Shown: positions 22,335-30,723 of the stretch, in pieces | Numbering within the stretch: position 1 is the stretch's first letter | Layout of the letters: each line of letters opens with the position of its first letter | DNA from: a virus | Taxonomy: Duplodnaviria; Heunggongvirae; Uroviricota; Caudoviricetes | Reading direction: 5' to 3' (one strand) | IMG/VR virus record: IMGVR_UViG_3300000944_000006 | Coordinates: 82,380 to 146,379 of that record | Length of the DNA: 64,000 bases | The notes under the pieces: model-generated | Told to the model about the DNA's origin: nothing | Databases searched by the model: none | Seen by the model: only the letters and a program-made list of their open reading frames with translations | Position numbers and translations under genes: made by a program

Positions 22335-23666
22335 CTACGCTAGAATTTCGCCAAGGTCTTGATATTCAGAAGGGTCGAAGTCATCACCTTCTGGTTCTTC
22401 ACCATCATACAGGTCATTCGTAAATTCAATATCAGAATCTTCCCACAAAGAATCGTCATGAATATCGCGCCAATGCTTGTCTTTCATATCATTAATAGTT
22501 TTGATTGTATCGTCATCAAAACGTTCCAAGCCAACCGTAATAGACTTTTTAACATCACGGTCTGAAATGATATAATACTTGATTACAGAAATCAGGCGGC
22601 GTGTTGTGAGAACATGTTCAAGTTGCTCTTGACCATATGCTTCGCGCGTGTGTTCCGCAAGGTCAATCAAGTTTGAAATAAACCGCTTATCAACATCTTC
22701 AATAGAATCGACAGAATTTAATGTCGTAAATTCTACCATGTTGTTCATGAGAATTTGGCTTTCAAGTGACTTTTCAGGATAGTCTTGAACATATGAGAAT
22801 GAATAGCGGTCAAGTGCGGCTTCGTTTTGAACATTAGCGCCAATAAATGAGCCTGTGCCATCACCACGACCTTTGGTGTTTGCTGTCGCAAGAACCATAA
22901 ATCCTGTTTTAGGATAAACCATCTCTTGTTGCTTTTTGACGTAATAACCGTCACCATTAACAATAGATTGTAGGCACATAAGCTTTGGGCCTGCCAAGTC
23001 AACTTCGTCAAGAAGAAGAACAGCACCGCGTTTCATAGCCATAATAGCAGGGCCATCTACCCAAACTGTTTCGCCGTCTTTCAGCGTGTAGTGACCAATA
23101 ACATCAGATTCGTCAGTCTCTTTTGTGATATTAAGAACCACAAGTTCACGACCAAGTTCATTACAAACTTGTTTGATAGTTTCGGTTTTACCACAACCAG
23201 AAAGACCAGAAATATACAATGGTAGAAATGCTGATGTATTCAAGATTTTTTTGATTTCATCATGCACACCAAAAGGTACATATGTTGGATTTTTCTTAGG
23301 AACAAGTTCTTTAGGAAGCTTGCCTGTTTTGATTGTTTTCATTTTAAGTGACTTCGACGCCATAATCTTCGCTTTCATAATATTAAGTTTTTGTTTCATT
23401 CCTTCTACAGAAATATACTTTAGCGGGATTGCTAAATACATTCCACTTCCAGAATATTTTTCCAAAAATCTTGGATAATCAATTTCATAAACTCTTAGAA
23501 ACTGCTTTAACCAAGATACTTGGACACGGTAACAAACTCTTTCAACGCTGTCAAGGGTCTGTTTAATTTTTTCTAATTCAACTCCATCATTTTTAAGAGC
23601 AATGTGAACATTATCAAGCGTGTCACATTGCTCTTTTGTTAAAACTAATTCGGGACTTTTATCCAA
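22335..23666 (-). CDS. MoxR/CobS-like AAA+ ATPase
   Basis: GLSGCGKT, LLLDEVD, ATANTKGRG, NEAALDR; adjacent to a vWA gene. Confidence 0.88.
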   Translation of the reverse strand: MDKSPELVLTKEQCDTLDNVHIALKNDGVELEKIKQTLDSVERVCYRVQVSWLKQFLRVYEIDYPRFLEKYSGSGMYLAIPLKYISVEGMKQKLNIMKAKIMASKSLKMKTIKTGKLPKELVPKKNPTYVPFGVHDEIKKILNTSAFLPLYISGLSGCGKTETIKQVCNELGRELVVLNITKETDESDVIGHYTLKDGETVWVDGPAIMAMKRGAVLLLDEVDLAGPKLMCLQSIVNGDGYYVKKQQEMVYPKTGFMVLATANTKGRGDGTGSFIGANVQNEAALDRYSFSYVQDYPEKSLESQILMNNMVEFTTLNSVDSIEDVDKRFISNLIDLAEHTREAYGQEQLEHVLTTRRLISVIKYYIISDRDVKKSITVGLERFDDDTIKTINDMKDKHWRDIHDDSLWEDSDIEFTNDLYDGEEPEGDDFDPSEYQDLGEILA

Positions 23667-25464
23667 AAATATCGTCCTTAGATTTCATATTCTGAACAAG
23701 TTTCGTTGTCAACATTTCATAGTTTGAATAAAAGTTATTTTCATCAAAACGGAATAAAACATCTGGTGAAGGCGTGTTCTTGTCTCGCGCCACAAACACA
23801 TCCAAACCTTTTTTGGAATATTCGCTCTTAAGACCATACTGCGAAAAATCTTCTTTGTAATCCGAAACGTGGAACCAAGAAATATTTGTCGAACGGTGAT
23901 GTTGGCGCATAATTTCACATAAAATAAATGCACCTTCCCAAGAATTTTTACCTTTGACGTAAAGCTTCTTGTCTTCGATAACAGCACCTTGGCCCGTATA
24001 TTTCGAATAGTTATTGCCTTGCCCATCAGTAATGATAAACACGTTATGAACTTCAATTTGATTTTCAAAAATAAACTGTGCGTTCGTATCTTTAATCAAT
24101 TCCATGCTTTCTAACAAAGGCGTTCCAGACATGCTTAATGCACCAGAACCATCATTAATGACATTGAAGATATCGTTCATACATGAATTCTTTTTATTGC
24201 GGCTATAGTCACTACGAATAATTTCAAAAAGATTATTATTACCAGACGTAAAACCATATGCACGATATGGAATATCAGCATATTTACAGAACAGTACCAA
24301 ATCAAGAACTTGACGGAAAGCGTCTGAAATATTTCCAGACATAGAACCAGAACAGTCTACCATAATAGTAGCGCCGTGATTTTTACCTTCAGGAACAAGT
24401 TCATCTGAAAGAAAAATATCATCGCTATTTTTATAGTTATACAAACGATTTGTATTTAAAACACCTGTCTTATATTCACGCGTCTTTTCATAAATTTTAG
24501 CGTTAAGAGCGATATTGAATTTTGCAGACAATTTCAAAGCGTTCTTACGGCTTTGGCTTAAATCAATAGTAGTAGCGTCTTGTGTGTGCATCAAATCTTT
24601 GAAAGGCGCAATTTTATCGTCATACAAAGCATCAGAACACTTTTGACCTGTCGCAAGATTTTGGTGGTTACTCTTTTGATTTTGAGCGTCTTTTGGCTTT
24701 GTATATTGATAATGATTATGGTCTTTACCAGTTTTCATATCTTTCTTTGCATCTTCAAAGTTTTTTGACAATTGACCAAGCTTAGATAAGTCAACACCAC
24801 CTTCGCCTGTGCCGCCTTCACCGCCTTCACCCTCACCTTCGCCATTTTTGGATGCAGATTGTGTAGATTGCTTTTGTTGATTAATATCTTCTTCAAGAAT
24901 ATCTTGTGCAAGTTCAACGCTATCTTTAAACGAACGAATCCCATCAAGACGTTCTAAGATTTTTTGTTCGTCTTCCGTAAATTCAATTTCTTTATCACCG
25001 AATTTTGTGAACATATTGATTCTATCGACCAAAGATGCTTCGTTAATGATATCAATATCATATTCAAAGTTTTCTGCGTTATCAGCAAATTCTTGATAGC
25101 CATTTTTGAAACGCTTCTTATACCCATGAAATTTATTGAACAGAGCATTCTGAACACGCGCTTCTTCAACAGTACGAAGATAAATTTCACCTGTCTCTTC
25201 ATTGTCTTTACACACAGCACGAATAGCATTTTTATTTTTGCTGATTTGACCGTTAGGTGTCCACGTAGCAGAAGCTGTCGCCATGCCACAAAATGTGTCA
25301 TACAAATCAGAAGAAATTTCTTCCCAATTTGGTAGAATGATTCGTTTATTAAACGTGTCATATGTAGGCTCGTTAACATATGAAGAATGTTCGATTTTAA
25401 TATTATCCCGTAGGAATGCACTCGCTAAGGCTGACTTAGCCTGCATAAGTAATGTTTTTGACAT
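23659..25464 (-). CDS. vWA (CobT-like) partner with degenerate N-terminal metallopeptidase-like domain
   Basis: MIDAS VDCSGSM, GTPL, ITDG; start at MSKTLL. Confidence 0.8.
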   Translation of the reverse strand: MSKTLLMQAKSALASAFLRDNIKIEHSSYVNEPTYDTFNKRIILPNWEEISSDLYDTFCGMATASATWTPNGQISKNKNAIRAVCKDNEETGEIYLRTVEEARVQNALFNKFHGYKKRFKNGYQEFADNAENFEYDIDIINEASLVDRINMFTKFGDKEIEFTEDEQKILERLDGIRSFKDSVELAQDILEEDINQQKQSTQSASKNGEGEGEGGEGGTGEGGVDLSKLGQLSKNFEDAKKDMKTGKDHNHYQYTKPKDAQNQKSNHQNLATGQKCSDALYDDKIAPFKDLMHTQDATTIDLSQSRKNALKLSAKFNIALNAKIYEKTREYKTGVLNTNRLYNYKNSDDIFLSDELVPEGKNHGATIMVDCSGSMSGNISDAFRQVLDLVLFCKYADIPYRAYGFTSGNNNLFEIIRSDYSRNKKNSCMNDIFNVINDGSGALSMSGTPLLESMELIKDTNAQFIFENQIEVHNVFIITDGQGNNYSKYTGQGAVIEDKKLYVKGKNSWEGAFILCEIMRQHHRSTNISWFHVSDYKEDFSQYGLKSEYSKKGLDVFVARDKNTPSPDVLFRFDENNFYSNYEMLTTKLVQNMKSKDDIFG

Positions 25465-25541
25465 AATTTGACTTCTTTTACATAAAATTAAAAAGGAATT
25501 ATATTTCCTATTTGTACATAACATTATAGACTGTCTTAGAG

Positions 25542-27479
25542 TTAGTCAATAACTTTCTGCGAAAAACCATCAACTTTTTTAAAAGATATAGTATCTTCAA
25601 ATAATTCAATCATATTATCGCTTCTATGAGATATAACAAAAACGTTATTTCCTTGCAAATTTTCTATGATGCCCATGAAACTATCGACACCATTCATGTC
25701 CAAAGACGAATCAAAAATTTCATCAAGAACAAGTAAATTTATTTGCTTCGTCTTTTGTATCATATTTTTGATATCTCGCCACGTAAACATAAGTGCCATA
25801 TCAATACGCTTACGTTCACCTTCAGAAAAATTTTCATAGGCAAAGACATCTATCTTTCGTGAATGTATCGTCTCTTTAAAATTTTCATCTAATTGGAAGT
25901 CAATAAAGAAATCCATCTGCTTTAGATATTCATTAATCTTTTCATTTATCAACGGAATATATTTTTTTATAATCTCTTGCTTCATACCTTTTTCAGATAG
26001 TGATGTTCCTATAGTTTCAAGAGACTTTCTTACTTCATGCTTTTCTTTAAAGGTTTTCTCATATTCTTGTTTAGTGTCAAGTAAAGACTGTATATCTCTT
26101 GATATTTCTTCTGTATCAATATGTTCAGAATTTTTATTTAAAAGTTTATATTTTTCTTTACCCAAATATGAAATTGTATTTTCAATTTTTGATGCATTTT
26201 GTTTTAATGATATTATAGTGTCTGATGTTTTCTTAAGGACTATTTTAGTGTCGTTTAACTCATTTAGTTTTTCGTGATAGTCTAATAATTCAGTTTTGTT
26301 TGTAGTATAATCTTTACCTACGTCTAGCATCTTTTCTTTTTTGAAAGTGCCAGTGATTATTTGTCCACATGTAGGGCAGTTATCATTAGTTTTTAAAAAT
26401 TTAAGAGTCTGTGACATCTCTTTATTTTGATAGTCGATTAAGGAAATTTTAGTCGATAAATCAGAAATTTTTTCTTCAACAAATTTCTTTTTTTCTTTAA
26501 AAGATTCAACATCAAGTTTGGTAATAGCAGAATTATATTTTTCAAGCTTCAATTCATTGTCTTTTATGCGGGCATCATAATCTTCTATATTAGAAGTTGT
26601 CTCTTTGTTATATCCATCTAAAAAATTTTTCTTTATAGATATTTCGCTGTCTGTAGTTTCAATTTTATTTTTTAAATCTACAATTTCAGAACGTAATATT
26701 TTCAAACGATTTTTTGCATTATCAAGCATCTTAGCAAATATTCCAGTGTCAAGAATATCTTCTATAAATTGACGGCGCTCACCTGCTTTAAGTTTCATAA
26801 ATGGCCGATAGTTTGAATTTCCTAAAACCACAATTTGCTTAAAAGCATCAAATTTTATACCTATTATTTCTTGTAATTTTTCTTGCTGTATCTTAGCGTC
26901 TGCCTCTTCAAGAAGCTTGACATCATTTTCGTATATTTCAAACACGTTTGGTTTTATTCCACGAAAAACTTTGTATGTCTTACCGTTTGTTTCAAATTCA
27001 ATTTGCACCAAACATTCTTTTTTATTGATTGAATTTACAAGTTTAGGTTTTGTTGTTTCGCGAAAAGATTTTCCGTAAAGAGCAAAGGATATGGACTCCG
27101 AAAATGTCGAATTATGGCTTACTATATCATTTGCGTAATATTCATTAACATCTTTAACCTGAATATCATATAAGTCAATTTTATATTCATTTTTAAATAT
27201 AGATTTTACTTTAGTTTTTCCATATATATTTTCGCCAAAATCTCCTACTACAATATCTTTAACAAACCCCCATTCATCATTGATAAAAAGTTTATGGTAT
27301 GGGGAAGCAATCAATGTATTTCCGCACTCAAAAGTGATGGTATAAGAGACAGAATCTTTTTCTGTTATTCCTGCCGCTTCAATCTTTTTATAACCATGTC
27401 TTGTTAAAACATTAATATTTCCTATCTCGTCTGGGTTATCGCGTAAAAAATCAGATATTTCCGAAAGCGTCACTTCCAT
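25542..27479 (-). CDS. gp46: gp46 C-terminal precursor: IntC (aa 1-123) fused to Rad50/SbcC-like C-extein
   Basis: Intein blocks SPYH, DLYDIQV, SHN then STFSESISFALYGK; Q-loop, CPTCGQ zinc hook, FSEGE signature, LVLDE Walker B. Confidence 0.93.
   Translation of the reverse strand: MEVTLSEISDFLRDNPDEIGNINVLTRHGYKKIEAAGITEKDSVSYTITFECGNTLIASPYHKLFINDEWGFVKDIVVGDFGENIYGKTKVKSIFKNEYKIDLYDIQVKDVNEYYANDIVSHNSTFSESISFALYGKSFRETTKPKLVNSINKKECLVQIEFETNGKTYKVFRGIKPNVFEIYENDVKLLEEADAKIQQEKLQEIIGIKFDAFKQIVVLGNSNYRPFMKLKAGERRQFIEDILDTGIFAKMLDNAKNRLKILRSEIVDLKNKIETTDSEISIKKNFLDGYNKETTSNIEDYDARIKDNELKLEKYNSAITKLDVESFKEKKKFVEEKISDLSTKISLIDYQNKEMSQTLKFLKTNDNCPTCGQIITGTFKKEKMLDVGKDYTTNKTELLDYHEKLNELNDTKIVLKKTSDTIISLKQNASKIENTISYLGKEKYKLLNKNSEHIDTEEISRDIQSLLDTKQEYEKTFKEKHEVRKSLETIGTSLSEKGMKQEIIKKYIPLINEKINEYLKQMDFFIDFQLDENFKETIHSRKIDVFAYENFSEGERKRIDMALMFTWRDIKNMIQKTKQINLLVLDEIFDSSLDMNGVDSFMGIIENLQGNNVFVISHRSDNMIELFEDTISFKKVDGFSQKVID
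27111..27479 (-). mobile_element. Split intein C-fragment (IntC, about 123 aa)
   Basis: Ends ANDIVSHN with +1 Ser. Confidence 0.9.
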
Positions 27480-28509
27480 TTTTAATTTCTTCCAATATTT
27501 CTTCTTGTTCAATTTTAGATATATCAAACATTTCAGTATATCCGCTTGCGGTGTGGTCTGTTTGAATTGAATTTCTAAGTTTAAATATCACATAATTTTC
27601 TATAAAGGAAGCCTTTTCTATACTGAATGGAAACTCTTTAATAATTTCGTATTCTCCAAAATTAGATTTAACATCTGCATATCTTTGAATGACACTTTTT
27701 CCTGTTATGCCAATTTTATAATAAAAATTATTCATTCCACCAAGTCTAATTTTTATCAAATATAAAAACCCATCTTTTTGTTTTATATGATTCTGACTTT
27801 TTGCACGTTTTTTCCTATTCATTTTTTTTATTTCTTCTTTAGACTTATTATTCAAAGTGTCTTGCCATTTTTCCTGACGTTTTTTCCAAATAGCATATCC
27901 TTCAACAGCACCATTTTTTTCAATACATTTTTGTAAAGAAAAACTTACTTGGGCGCGAGATACTAGAAATTCAGCTTCGCTTTCTTTGTATCCTCTTATC
28001 ATCCAATACTCTTTACATCTATGAGAACTTTCTCTCCTAAATTTTTTATCACACACTGTTAATGCACCCTTAATGTTATTATTTTGCTTTTTTTCAGCAG
28101 CTAACTTTATTGATTCTTTTTCATTATATCCTTTTTCTAACCAATATTCAGGTCGAATAGGGCGATAACTATTTCTTTTGTAGTCTGCTTCGGAAATTGT
28201 ATATTTTTTTCCTGTTTTTGGATTTATTTTTCCCATATGATATTCCCTAGAAAATGGTGATATTTTAGGCTTGGAATTTTGGCGGGCTTTATATTTAGAT
28301 TCCCCCTGTGTCCATCCTCTTTGCATCCAATAGTTTTTTGTACATCTGCCACAAGGCTTCCAATTTTTCTTATATATTGATATAATTTTAGTGGCAGATT
28401 TTTTTGGATTTTCTTTAATAAGCGTTTTTAGTTTTTCATCTGATTTTAAGTTTTCTATTTTTTCAGAACAATATTTTAATTTTTCTTCAAAGTTTTTTGT
28501 CTTTCGCAT
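27451..28509 (-). mobile_element. Free-standing GIY-YIG (T5orf172-like) homing endonuclease between the split-intein halves
   Basis: C-terminal GFLYLIKI...YYKIGIT...R...IEN...GYTEMF; three YWxxxGxxExE repeats; overlaps both flanking genes. Confidence 0.8.
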
Positions 28510-28585
28510 TTAAATAATCCTTTAACTTTTTTTTAGTTTCAGGATTATTTATAAAAATAGTTACCTTAGTATCTGGATGCAGACA
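28487..28585 (-). mobile_element. Split intein N-fragment (IntN, 32 aa)
   Basis: Cys1 TGT at 28585-28583; stop after 32 residues. Confidence 0.9.
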
Positions 28586-28702
28586 CTTACCAACACCATT
28601 TGTGCCAGATATTAATGTCGTATGTGCCTTATCAAGGTCAATTGTTATAGGGTTATTTCCACATGAGAGAAAATTTCTATATGTAACTTGCTTTAATATC
28701 AT
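28487..28702 (-). CDS. gp46: gp46 N-terminal precursor: 39-aa N-extein plus 32-aa IntN
   Basis: YRNFLSCGN...ISGTNGVGK then CLHPDTKV (intein block A). Confidence 0.92.
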   Translation of the reverse strand: MILKQVTYRNFLSCGNNPITIDLDKAHTTLISGTNGVGKCLHPDTKVTIFINNPETKKKLKDYLNAKDKKL

Positions 28703-28716
28703 TAAATAAATTCAAC

Positions 28717-29043
28717 TTAGTTATTATAAAACTCAAATCTATCTATATTAAAACCGCTATCAAGGTCAAATATTATTTTCCATTTTGACCCATCATGAGA
28801 AGAATAAGTTCTTTCCATATTCCAAAAATCTATATTCTTTTCTATCGATATGAATATGTCTATTGTATCAACTTTAGTATAAGACATTAGAAAACTTCGC
28901 TTTAATGCTTCGTCATATTTTTTTTCTAATTTTCCATCTTTATTGGAACACGTAGCTTCGACATGAAGGTTTTCAGTTTTTATTATAAGAGATTCACCAT
29001 TATAATCGACATTATTAGAAGTTATTTTAAATTTTTTAAGCAT
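28717..29043 (-). CDS. Small protein, probably YKYK-related
   Basis: KKFKITS...IDIFI...NIDRFE. Confidence 0.55.
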   Translation of the reverse strand: MLKKFKITSNNVDYNGESLIIKTENLHVEATCSNKDGKLEKKYDEALKRSFLMSYTKVDTIDIFISIEKNIDFWNMERTYSSHDGSKWKIIFDLDSGFNIDRFEFYNN

Positions 29044-29152
29044 TATAAGTAAAATCTAAAGAAGTATTTCCAAATTCCGACACGATTCTTATAGTACCAC
29101 TACCAAGATGAAAAGGCTTCACTATTCCTGTAAATTGGTATTTATGTATCAC
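29036..29152 (-). CDS. Truncated YKYK-like ORF (38 aa, GTG start)
   Basis: Manual translation MIHKYQFTGIV... Confidence 0.35.
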   Translation of the reverse strand: MIHKYQFTGIVKPFHLGSGTIRIVSEFGNTSLDFTYNA

Positions 29153-29270
29153 ACTCTTCACGATATATTTCCATAATAAGCTGTTCAGTTGACGTATCAT
29201 AATCTAAAGTCTCTTCTTTTTCAAGAACTTCTTTTCCTACATCATCTATCAAAAAATTTTTTTTATCCAT
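29142..29270 (-). CDS. 42-aa ORF duplicating the gp47 C-terminus
   Basis: DYDTSTEQLIMEIYREEC vs gp47 DFDDSTKQLMMQIYREEC. Confidence 0.6.
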   Translation of the reverse strand: MDKKNFLIDDVGKEVLEKEETLDYDTSTEQLIMEIYREECDT

Positions 29271-29276
29271 ATTTTT

Positions 29277-29495
29277 TCATTCACCAAACACCAATTCTTC
29301 ATTACATTTTTTACATATACCATAGACAATATTTTTTAAAGTAATGTCATCAAAAAAATTCTTTACAACAAATTTTCTGTGCCACTGCCCTGATGCCACA
29401 CATTCTTCATTAGAAGATAAACATAAAATATCGCAAGACAGACAGTTGCCTTCTTGTTCTTCGAAAAGTTTTTGTCTCTGTTTTCTTTTGTTCAT
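29277..29495 (-). CDS. Small Cys-rich protein, possibly a degenerate HNH
   Basis: LFEEQEGNCLSC...GICKKCNE. Confidence 0.5.
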   Translation of the reverse strand: MNKRKQRQKLFEEQEGNCLSCDILCLSSNEECVASGQWHRKFVVKNFFDDITLKNIVYGICKKCNEELVFGE

Positions 29496-29522
29496 AATTA
29501 TGTGATATCTACAATCTTATAT

Positions 29523-30542
29523 TTAAACACATTCTTCGCGATATATTTGCATCATTAATTGTTTTGTGGAATCATCGAAATCATTATTTTCCGAATACTG
29601 TCCAATAAATTTTAACTTGTTAGACATATCATAAATATTTTCTTCTTCGCTTTCAATCGTTTTTTTGTCAGATGTGTTTGTTTTTTTATTATCACCAGTT
29701 TGTTTAAAATCATGAGTTATTTCTTTAAGACGTTCCACATCTTCTTCATTCAATTCATCATCAGACTTTAAACGCACAAACATATCTTTAAGCGTCTCTA
29801 TGTCTTCTGGCATTTCATCTATATATGTGAACATTTTGAATGGAACTTCAACAGGGCTTATATCTCCTGTTTCGTCATCCATGATATGAAAATATTTTTG
29901 GTCATCAGCATCTGCCCATGTAAACTGAAATTGTGAACCGAAGTAGTGTATATTACCTATCGATGATTTGTGATGATAATGACCAGAACCTACAAAACCG
30001 TGTCTGGCAAATATGTCTTGACGCAGACCATGTTCAATTTTGATACCATCTTTATACATCTTAAAACCAGATATTTCGAAATGACCTAATAGGATATCAT
30101 ACTTTTCTGTTTTTATATTGTTTAAAATATCACCAGAATTTTGTGAATTAATCCAAGGGACAATACCAATTTTATTGGATGATGTTGAAAAAGATGTGTC
30201 TACAGAATCAGTGATAATCTTGATGTTAGAATATCCTTTTAGCAGAAGGTCTATAGAATTTATTTTATTTGAATCTTTATAATATACATCATGATTACCC
30301 AATGAAATTGTGATATCTATGTGCGTAAGCTTGTCGAATATTTTACGAGTATTATAAAGAATTTGATAGTCTATTATACGGCGCTTATCGAACACGTCAC
30401 CTATCATCAATATACTTGTGATATTGTGTGTTGACATATACTTGATAAGCCATATGAAAAAATCTTCTTGGTACTTCAAGAAGATTTTGGAATTGTTACG
30501 AGCGCCGAAGTGAATATCGGATAGAATAATATGCTTAGTCAT
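29523..30542 (-). CDS. gp47: Mre11/SbcD-like recombination nuclease
   Basis: SDIHFG, GDVFD, GNHD, GHFE, SGHYHH; upstream of gp46. Confidence 0.93.
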   Translation of the reverse strand: MTKHIILSDIHFGARNNSKIFLKYQEDFFIWLIKYMSTHNITSILMIGDVFDKRRIIDYQILYNTRKIFDKLTHIDITISLGNHDVYYKDSNKINSIDLLLKGYSNIKIITDSVDTSFSTSSNKIGIVPWINSQNSGDILNNIKTEKYDILLGHFEISGFKMYKDGIKIEHGLRQDIFARHGFVGSGHYHHKSSIGNIHYFGSQFQFTWADADDQKYFHIMDDETGDISPVEVPFKMFTYIDEMPEDIETLKDMFVRLKSDDELNEEDVERLKEITHDFKQTGDNKKTNTSDKKTIESEEENIYDMSNKLKFIGQYSENNDFDDSTKQLMMQIYREECV

Positions 30543-30723
30543 TTTTAGAAGACTCATTTTTTTTATTAAGAGTTTTACGCTCAAAATGGTCTGCACAAGC
30601 TTCTAACACATCAAACGCACATACATCACAAATGGCAGATGATTTATGCACAACCAGTAATACAATATTGTCAATATGTTTATCACAGAAAGAACAGTTT
30701 TGTGGAGTATTTTCTACATTCAT
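30535..30723 (-). CDS. Stand-alone ClpX-type C4 zinc-binding domain
   Basis: CSFCDKH...LLV...AICDVC matches the ClpX N-terminal CSFCGK...ICDEC pattern. Confidence 0.7.
   Translation of the reverse strand: MNVENTPQNCSFCDKHIDNIVLLVVHKSSAICDVCAFDVLEACADHFERKTLNKKNESSKND

Follow-up and report, generated by a model that had tools for sequence, protein, structure and literature searches.

A gp46 gene in two pieces

The 64,000-nucleotide stretch analysed here (the window; positions 82,380 to 146,379 of the virus record IMGVR_UViG_3300000944_000006) belongs to an uncultured, T4-like phage, whose record of 151,219 bp carries direct terminal repeats and is estimated to be 100% complete. Between positions 25542 and 28702 its minus strand holds three co-oriented genes in three different frames, as read from the sequence and the translations of its open reading frames (ORFs). 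Gene 1 encodes the beginning of the Rad50/SbcC-like protein gp46 and, directly after the Lys of the Walker A motif, what appears to be a short N-terminal intein fragment (IntN); a gene for a putative free-standing endonuclease follows; and gene 2 encodes a matching C-terminal intein fragment (IntC) and then the body of gp46 (Table 1). The middle gene shares 23 nt with gene 1 and 29 nt with gene 2, and with such packing all three are likely to be co-transcribed and coupled in translation. A scan for promoters and terminators gave counts equal to the shuffled expectation in AT-rich DNA, and is hence uninformative. In T4, gp46 is central to recombination-dependent replication.

Table 1. Genes and features of the gp46 locus, in window coordinates.
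Feature	Position	Strand	Description
Gene 1	28702-28487	(-)	71 aa: 39 gp46 residues and 32-aa IntN, TGA stop
gp46 N-extein, 39 aa	28586..28702	(-)	First beta strands, then Walker A as far as GTNGVGK
IntN, 32 aa	28490..28585	(-)	Cys1, block A strand (CLHPDTKVTIFI), Lys-rich helix (PETKKKLKDYL...); stop 28487-28489
Putative endonuclease gene	28509-27451	(-)	352 codons, free-standing; start 23 nt before gene 1 stop
Endonuclease N-terminal module, residues 1-240	27790..28509	(-)	Three YW..RG(W/Y)..E(S/A) repeats, FSLxKCIEK.G...W..RQ.KW helix region
Endonuclease C-terminal domain, residues ~242-350	27460..27786	(-)	Predicted T5orf172 / GIY-YIG-superfamily nuclease fold
Gene 2	27479-25542	(-)	645 aa: IntC of 123 aa, then C-extein
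IntC, 123 aa	27111..27479	(-)	Strand and canonical helix alpha1 (EVTLSEISDFL), blocks B, F and G
gp46 C-extein, 522 aa	25545..27110	(-)	From Ser+1-Thr; Rad50/SbcC ATPase body; stop 25542-25544
gp47 (Mre11/SbcD nuclease), gp46 partner	29523..30596	(-)	Longest-ORF limit; real start may be a few codons in

The 39 residues with which gene 1 opens match PHROG 77 (SbcC-like, E 1.5e-10) and, weakly, the N-terminus of the Pfam families AAA_23/SMC_N, and they align with residues 1-39 of intein-less gp46. Cys1 of the intein is residue 40 of the gene 1 product (codon 28585-28583), directly after GTNGVGK and with 31 residues beyond it; IntN contains 8 Lys and has a net charge of +4. A word-based protein search with the 71-aa product returned the window's own protein alone.

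The start of gene 2 is most likely the ATG at 27479, 1,007 nt downstream of the gene 1 stop, since relatives begin at the aligned Met; the TTG at 27527 offered by the ORF finder is the less likely start. The first 20 residues of IntC are acidic (net -5), and SPYH (block B), DLYDIQV (block F) and VSHN (block G) lie at residues 59-62, 102-108 and 120-123, respectively. SHN (121-123) runs on into STFSESISFALYGK, with Ser124 as the Ser+1 residue, followed by TFSESISFALYGK. The original prediction had described both genes in these terms, from GTNGVGK, Cys and a stop after 32 intein residues (8 Lys) in gene 1 to the acidic start and intein blocks of gene 2; its sequence statements were correct throughout, and the genes are here placed on the minus strand.

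The remainder of gene 2 is recognisably a Rad50-type ATPase, with coiled coil, CPTC zinc hook, FSEGE signature, LLVLDE Walker B and ISH H-loop all retained. It matches TIGR00618 (sbcC) from model position 41, at gene 2 residue 124, the model scores being far under the NCBIfam equivalog cut-offs, as expected of the short phage form; its PDB matches include chains of Rad50 and SbcC (E 2e-9 to 4e-8). Compared with an intein-less gp46 of 570 aa, it is 40% identical over that protein's residues 40-567 (E 4.9e-97). Together the exteins thus make up one complete gp46, the N-extein corresponding to residues 1-39 and the C-extein to residues 40-567 of the 570-aa protein; in intein-less relatives the sequence G.NG.GK-STF...ALYGK is continuous over the break point. 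Splicing would rebuild Walker A as GTNGVGK/ST (GKST; here and below a slash marks a splice junction) in a gp46 of 561 aa. The complete 151,219-bp genome was searched for a second gp46 and for a second copy of the endonuclease, and holds neither. Since this is the sole gp46 in a complete genome, the phage would depend on the joining of the two pieces, if gp46 is used as it is in T4.

The intein family, its fold and its predicted endonuclease

A word-based search returned 26 IntC-first proteins of ~650-660 aa (one of 702 aa) and three proteins of ~720 aa with a contiguous intein. A family profile run exhaustively against 1.84 billion representatives (50% identity clusters) gave 102 representatives at E<=1e-30, and the best 150 matches were classified: among them, at least 52 clusters combine an N-terminal IntC with a gp46-like extein, and 26 have a gp46 intein in contiguous form (139-178 aa), at the same GK/C...SHN/S site. 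Among 50,697 GenBank phage records, megablast with the region found no match and tblastn with IntC no relative at E<=1e-8, and a search of viral contigs with gene 2 for related loci gave no confirmed relative.

Nine related loci, comprising seven distinct arrangements, could be compared. All nine have an IntN gene of 68-75 aa upstream of the gene 2 homologue, and eight of the nine have the gp47 gene upstream of that. Four carry an intervening ORF of 340-433 aa (L003, L011, L013 and L014); the other five, representing three arrangements, have no intervening gene, the two coding regions being separated by 22 nt or 32 nt or overlapping by 4 nt. With or without the endonuclease gene, split alleles always have a true stop and a true start. 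IntN is short in the eight loci measured (27-35 aa), and IntC, of 122-127 aa, holds blocks B, F and G.

The residues required for splicing do not vary. Cys1 and Thr6 are invariant in the eight IntN genes, and Cys also occupies position 1 in the contiguous alleles, as the nucleophile of a class 1 intein. Ser59, His62, Asp105, Ser121-His122-Asn123 and Ser+1 are invariant in 23 sequences that are 38-51% identical to that of the window, and the block B His, the block F Asp and SHN-S are again invariant in a set of 40. Invariance of these residues across diverged members points to selection for the chemistry of splicing rather than for mere association of the fragments. The recurrence of the architecture in dozens of 50%-identity clusters, with invariant splice residues, puts the observation far beyond chance.

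Several more distant matches were seen. About 20 further IntC-first proteins (~750-770 aa; P0108, P0116, P0121, P0127), with the junction QYYSNGIVSHNS, form a separate clade, probably from a different group of large viruses; their SbcC-like exteins are mostly (~20 of those listed) too diverged for a BLASTP match to the window's C-extein. Two proteins, P0123 (1211 aa) and P0133 (1017 aa), are Mre11/SbcD-Rad50 fusions with this same intein at the Rad50 Walker A, the junction lying near residue 566-569. The nearest matches outside gp46 are large terminase subunits (TerL) with IntC first (~113-121 residues; for example P0143 and P0152), at E ~1e-32 to 1e-25 with the gp46-intein profile. These restart directly past their own Walker A/P-loop (SHN/T...), and several hold one or two more contiguous inteins downstream; the kinship suggests movement of inteins among the P-loops of different ATPases.

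The fold was examined through a contiguous relative, P0136, whose AlphaFold2 (AF2) model is of high confidence (predicted local distance difference test, pLDDT, 93.3; predicted template-modelling score 0.88) and adopts a HINT fold. It had 65 matches in the PDB at E<=0.001, and the best 50 of the 65 are inteins or HINT-type domains, led by the VidaL intein (E 2.2e-10, template-modelling score 0.87 by target, root-mean-square deviation (rmsd) 2.5 A, 18% identity) and then DnaB, gp41-1 and NrdJ-1. The family profile searched against the PDB gave a similar set (NrdJ-1 2.6e-11, gp41-1 2.3e-10, VidaL 3.7e-8, Cat IntC 4.6e-7). In the P0136 model, strand beta2 (residues 15-20) is followed by an extra helix (23-33), a loop (34-40), a short strand (41-45) and helix alpha1 (46-55). 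Split gene 2 homologues begin at the aligned short strand ahead of alpha1, so that IntN consists of block A and the extra helix. In the terms of PMC13014065 the modelled break is of S1 type (after beta2) with a helical appendix, an assignment derived from the model of this relative and not from the window's own fragments. The linker that bears the break differs widely in length among contiguous alleles, most of which have the extra segment too.

For the window's own fragments the evidence of a HINT fold is a predicted complex. The gene 1 product was modelled with gene 2 residues 1-140, an alignment being supplied for each, and reached an ipSAE of 0.69, where the best of three controls had 0.00; 58 of 80 solved complexes attained this mark, as did 2 of 110 mismatched pairs. 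The partners had pLDDT values of 57 or more, and the runs shared at least 72% of their contacts. Gene 1 residues 38-53 pair with IntC residues 1-6, 21-25 and 114-118, adjoining blocks B, F and G, and one face of the IntN helix (gene 1 residues 56-67) touches IntC 7-18. The model supports association of the fragments and says nothing of chemistry, and its pass may partly reflect likeness to known split inteins, which are well represented among solved structures.

All five intervening ORFs (that of the window and those of L003, L011, L013 and L014) begin with the same YW-repeat module, which has 38 invariant columns, is all-helical in the AF2 model and presumably binds DNA. What follows it comes in two kinds. 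The window's C-terminal domain, taken in isolation, scores 19.9 bits (E 0.0011) with Pfam T5orf172 (PF10544), whose cut-off is 20, and covers positions 1-100 of the 101 in the profile; the Pfam scan of the whole protein gave no match. Its AF2 model, of moderate confidence (pLDDT ~50-80), has T5orf172/GIY-YIG proteins as top Foldseek matches among AlphaFold Database clusters (probability 1.00, mostly rmsd ~3-5 A over ~105-115 residues). Foldseek against the PDB returned nothing significant (the I-TevI catalytic domain at E 2.2), and a word-based search with the domain returned the window's own protein alone. The ORFs of L003, L011 and L014 have a different C-terminal domain with conserved SS.EI, YPNS..YDF and YIE motifs; a profile of it found no match in the PDB, and in the ESM Atlas gave leads below 0.9 to DUF559/Vsr-like and Phage_endo_I, 'Vsr-like' being a lead only. 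PHROGs has no family for either type. One predicted DNA-binding module thus bears two alternative, predicted nuclease domains at the same genomic position, and this fits the endonucleases of fractured genes, which are of GIY-YIG type or of an alternative type called Vsr-like (PMC2677866).

The YW-repeat module was also seen in Caulobacter phage Cr30, in a 340-aa 'hypothetical protein' between terS and terL (L016 2168-3190; KF301602.1 97991-99013) that is 33% identical to the window's endonuclease over residues 82-236. To judge from its sequence and its typical location, this is probably an unannotated free-standing homing endonuclease.

Probable splicing in trans and its alternatives

We put at roughly 85% the probability that the Walker A motif of gp46 is fractured, between Lys39 and Ser40, by a class-1 intein that is atypically split and encloses a free-standing homing-endonuclease gene, and that trans-splicing rejoins the halves. 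A break of this kind was the central claim of the original prediction, and it is supported by motif invariance, by recurrence across the family, by the HINT fold, by the model of the fragment complex and by the presence of a single gp46 in a complete genome.

Under this scheme a free-standing endonuclease gene would have broken the intein into a 32-residue IntN and a 123-residue IntC. In the model the IntN strand slots between the first IntC strand and the strands at IntC 21-25 and 114-118, while the Lys-rich IntN helix packs on IntC helix alpha1, which would complete the HINT fold. Splicing would begin with an N-S acyl shift at Lys39-Cys1, aided by the Ser and His of block B; the hydroxyl of Ser+1 would attack to give a branched ester; Asn123 would cyclise, aided by His122 and the block F Asp; and an O-N shift would yield the 561-aa gp46 with an intact GTNGVGKST loop. 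Judging from T4 biology, the spliced protein would join gp47 in resecting ends for recombination-dependent replication. The endonuclease would be the selfish partner, most likely cutting endonuclease-free alleles of the intein, contiguous or already split, its gene then being copied into the variable linker that follows beta2. The existence of split loci free of the endonuclease gene indicates that the split state outlasts the nuclease, and hence trans-splicing appears to be kept by selection on gp46. That recombination-dependent replication in this phage would need trans-splicing, as the original prediction inferred, is a well-founded proposition.

Several points weigh against this interpretation. 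The whole case consists of sequence, models and comparison, and no spliced protein has been observed. Pfam Intein_splicing (PF14890) scores 25.6 bits on the gene 2 product alone, under the gathering cut-off of 35.8, although a six-frame search gave 40.8 bits as the sum of two stretches of frame. Block B carries Ser instead of the usual Thr, throughout the family. The predicted nuclease domain falls just short of its own Pfam cut-off, with a model of no more than moderate confidence. The pairing of a basic IntN with an acidic IntC, part of the original prediction, holds for the window pair (+4/-5) and is missing in three of eight pairs in the family; it cannot be the general mechanism of association, and a family-wide charge zipper was rejected. 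Finally, the genome is metagenome-derived: the sequencing runs containing the stretch comprised one DNA sample, an 'algae metagenome' that is probably the source, and no RNA run.

How often the family has been broken is a separate matter. It is conceivable, though we think it rather improbable, that one endonuclease lineage, with one DNA-binding module in common and either of two exchangeable nuclease domains, homed repeatedly into the post-beta2 linker, split contiguous alleles several times and was then lost, the extra IntN helix acting as a built-in affinity handle that made so early a break tolerable. The tree of IntC cores is poorly resolved; its well-supported branches pair split with contiguous alleles and force at least three changes of state, and in the tree the window sits together with P0004/L013, whose nuclease is of the same type. 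A shuffle test was not significant, and the tree weakly suggests repeated breaking, or re-fusion, instead of a single event. Were repeated breaking true, the family would offer a direct test of the gene-breaking model and a large set of orthogonal Cys1/Ser+1 ligation tools with short IntN.

The original prediction also raised the possibility of a post-translational switch, in which trans-splicing would double as a timing- or condition-dependent control of gp46. Conditional protein splicing is a topic of the intein literature in general, of which PMC10663303 and PMC11766414 are reviews, and the P-loop site makes the unspliced protein inactive by construction. Against this, the sequence shows no sign of regulation, and no Cys pattern of redox-pair type is conserved in the family; the genes lie side by side and are probably expressed together; and contiguous alleles, split alleles with nuclease and split alleles without it interchange among relatives, as would be expected of a neutral selfish element. 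The switch, an addition to trans-splicing and no rival of it, is unsupported and speculative; that splicing gates gp46 activity during infection is a weaker possibility than repeated breaking, and we regard it as unlikely.

Less likely still, the intein halves may hold the gp46 halves together non-covalently, the enzyme working without splicing as in NrdA of Aeromonas phage Aeh1, which is split by a homing-endonuclease gene. Phage enzymes in fragments that assemble unspliced are on record (PMC3045599), and the complex model speaks to association only, which this alternative shares. However, association alone would not keep every splicing residue invariant at ~30-50% identity; without splicing, a domain of ~155 residues would sit between the Lys and Ser of the P-loop; and the same intein also exists in contiguous alleles, in which Walker A has to be freed by splicing in cis.

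Since disruption of genes by homing endonucleases does occur, gp46 could also have been inactivated by the insertion, its pieces now decaying. This is very improbable: the three ORFs are unbroken and closely packed, no Rad50 motif is missing from the C-extein of what is the only gp46 in a complete genome, and the same split occurs in 52 or more diverged clusters, whether or not the endonuclease gene is present. Mending of the break at the level of RNA or translation, to give a contiguous intein precursor (by a group I intron, bypassing or frameshifting, T4-like phages being known for endonuclease-bearing group I introns and for the translational bypass in gene 60), is the least likely alternative. 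Repair of the RNA is ruled out by the true stops and fresh Met starts that endonuclease-free relatives have at the same point, together with an Rfam scan of 25000-29500 that found no family at E<=1, group I introns included. The three genes moreover lie in three frames, and the endonuclease ORF, overlapping both flanking coding regions, leaves no room for an intron structure; the group I intron idea was dropped.

Neighbouring genes and known systems

Upstream of gp46 on the same strand lies the gene for its partner gp47 (Pfam Metallophos E 2.1e-5; TIGR00619 sbcD E 5.8e-8). In most related loci gp47 is much closer to the IntN gene, and the ~800 nt of small ORFs at 28717-29495 may be an insertion; one of these, a Cys-rich ORF of 72 aa between gp47 and gene 1 (29277-29495, minus strand), weakly matches an HNH endonuclease family of PHROGs (phrog_33554, E 0.0043). 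Just downstream of gp46, a 621-aa ORF (23659-25524, minus strand) matches phrog_459 ('peptidase') at E 4.6e-72 and no Pfam family, and carries DCSGSMSG, resembling a vWA MIDAS site. Elsewhere in the same genome, outside the window (L008, G000:C1:72749-76111), the large subunit of ribonucleotide reductase contains a contiguous LAGLIDADG intein (frame of 922+ aa; Intein_splicing 40.6 bits, LAGLIDADG_3 40.2 bits), and on a related phage contig (L003 8763-9548) a DNA polymerase B gene is in two pieces around a GIY-YIG (LEM-3-type) gene.

Fractured genes were described by Dassa, London, Stoddard, Schueler-Furman and Pietrokovski in 2009 (NAR; PMC2677866). The order found here, of N-extein with IntN, free-standing endonuclease and IntC with C-extein, is the same three-gene layout, and the phage origin and the role of the enzyme in DNA metabolism are shared as well. 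The gene-breaking model of those authors fits the series of contiguous, split-with-nuclease and split-without-nuclease alleles in the gp46 family, which shows all of these states side by side. One of their loci, the GOS terminase, is 'fractured at an unusual point', with a C part of 122 residues that holds all motifs except N1 (PMC2677866), close to the 123 residues of the gp46 IntC. The Walker A Lys/Ser site of gp46/SbcC is not among the eight enzyme types of PMC2677866, which does mention an SbcD-like gene split without an intein.

Our literature search, which left the intein registry InBase and the VidaL paper outside its scope, found no description of an intein in gp46, SbcC or Rad50, and no paper combining 'split intein' and SbcC. 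The original prediction, which knew of no characterised gp46 intein, agrees with this and with the lack of a relative among the GenBank phage records. As far as the search shows, then, what is new is the host gene, fractured genes and atypically split inteins being already known. The element is less novel than the original prediction implied, since the arrangement is known and the family common in metagenomes; the split intein of gp46 is real, well supported and useful, yet not surprising to a specialist, and the understanding of how inteins work is unchanged by it.

If the interpretation is correct, a key enzyme of recombination-dependent replication relies on protein trans-splicing across a group of uncultured T4-like and larger phages. 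The occurrence of two nuclease types on one predicted DNA-binding module is of interest for the evolution of inteins. Few natural split inteins have so short an IntN (AceL/GOS-TerL, Cat, VidaL and PolB16), and the gp46 family puts on offer for protein engineering dozens of diverged Cys1/Ser+1 pairs with an IntN of 27-35 residues, in a P-loop extein context, GK/ST, that is common to many ATPases.

Among solved inteins the closest relatives by sequence are gp41-1 and NrdJ-1, themselves from fractured phage genes of the GOS data (gp41-1 at E 6e-4 from a single sequence); unlike the gp46 intein, these have the canonical split between blocks B and F, with a long IntN and a short IntC. In short IntN, long IntC and phage origin the gp46 intein resembles AceL-TerL, GOS-TerL and the consensus Cat (IntN 25-37 aa), and among the 50 structural matches listed, the one most nearly identical to P0136 in sequence is the Cat IntC (6dsl_B; 30% over 99 columns, rmsd 1.7 A). 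Its junction, Cys1/Ser+1, differs from those of AceL (Cys/Cys) and GOS (Ser/Cys; table in PMC11766414), and so does its point of breakage: TerL inteins are split after helix alpha1, at the S2 position (PMC13014065), whereas the gp46 intein breaks before alpha1, which belongs to IntC. VidaL (PDB 6vgv; 16-aa IntN) and PolB16 OarG (15-aa IntN), which are split right after beta2, at S1 (PMC13014065), break at topologically the same place. The gp46 IntN differs from theirs in an extra helix and loop of ~15-20 residues past beta2, which account for its length of 27-35 aa, against 15-16, and which pack on alpha1 in the models.

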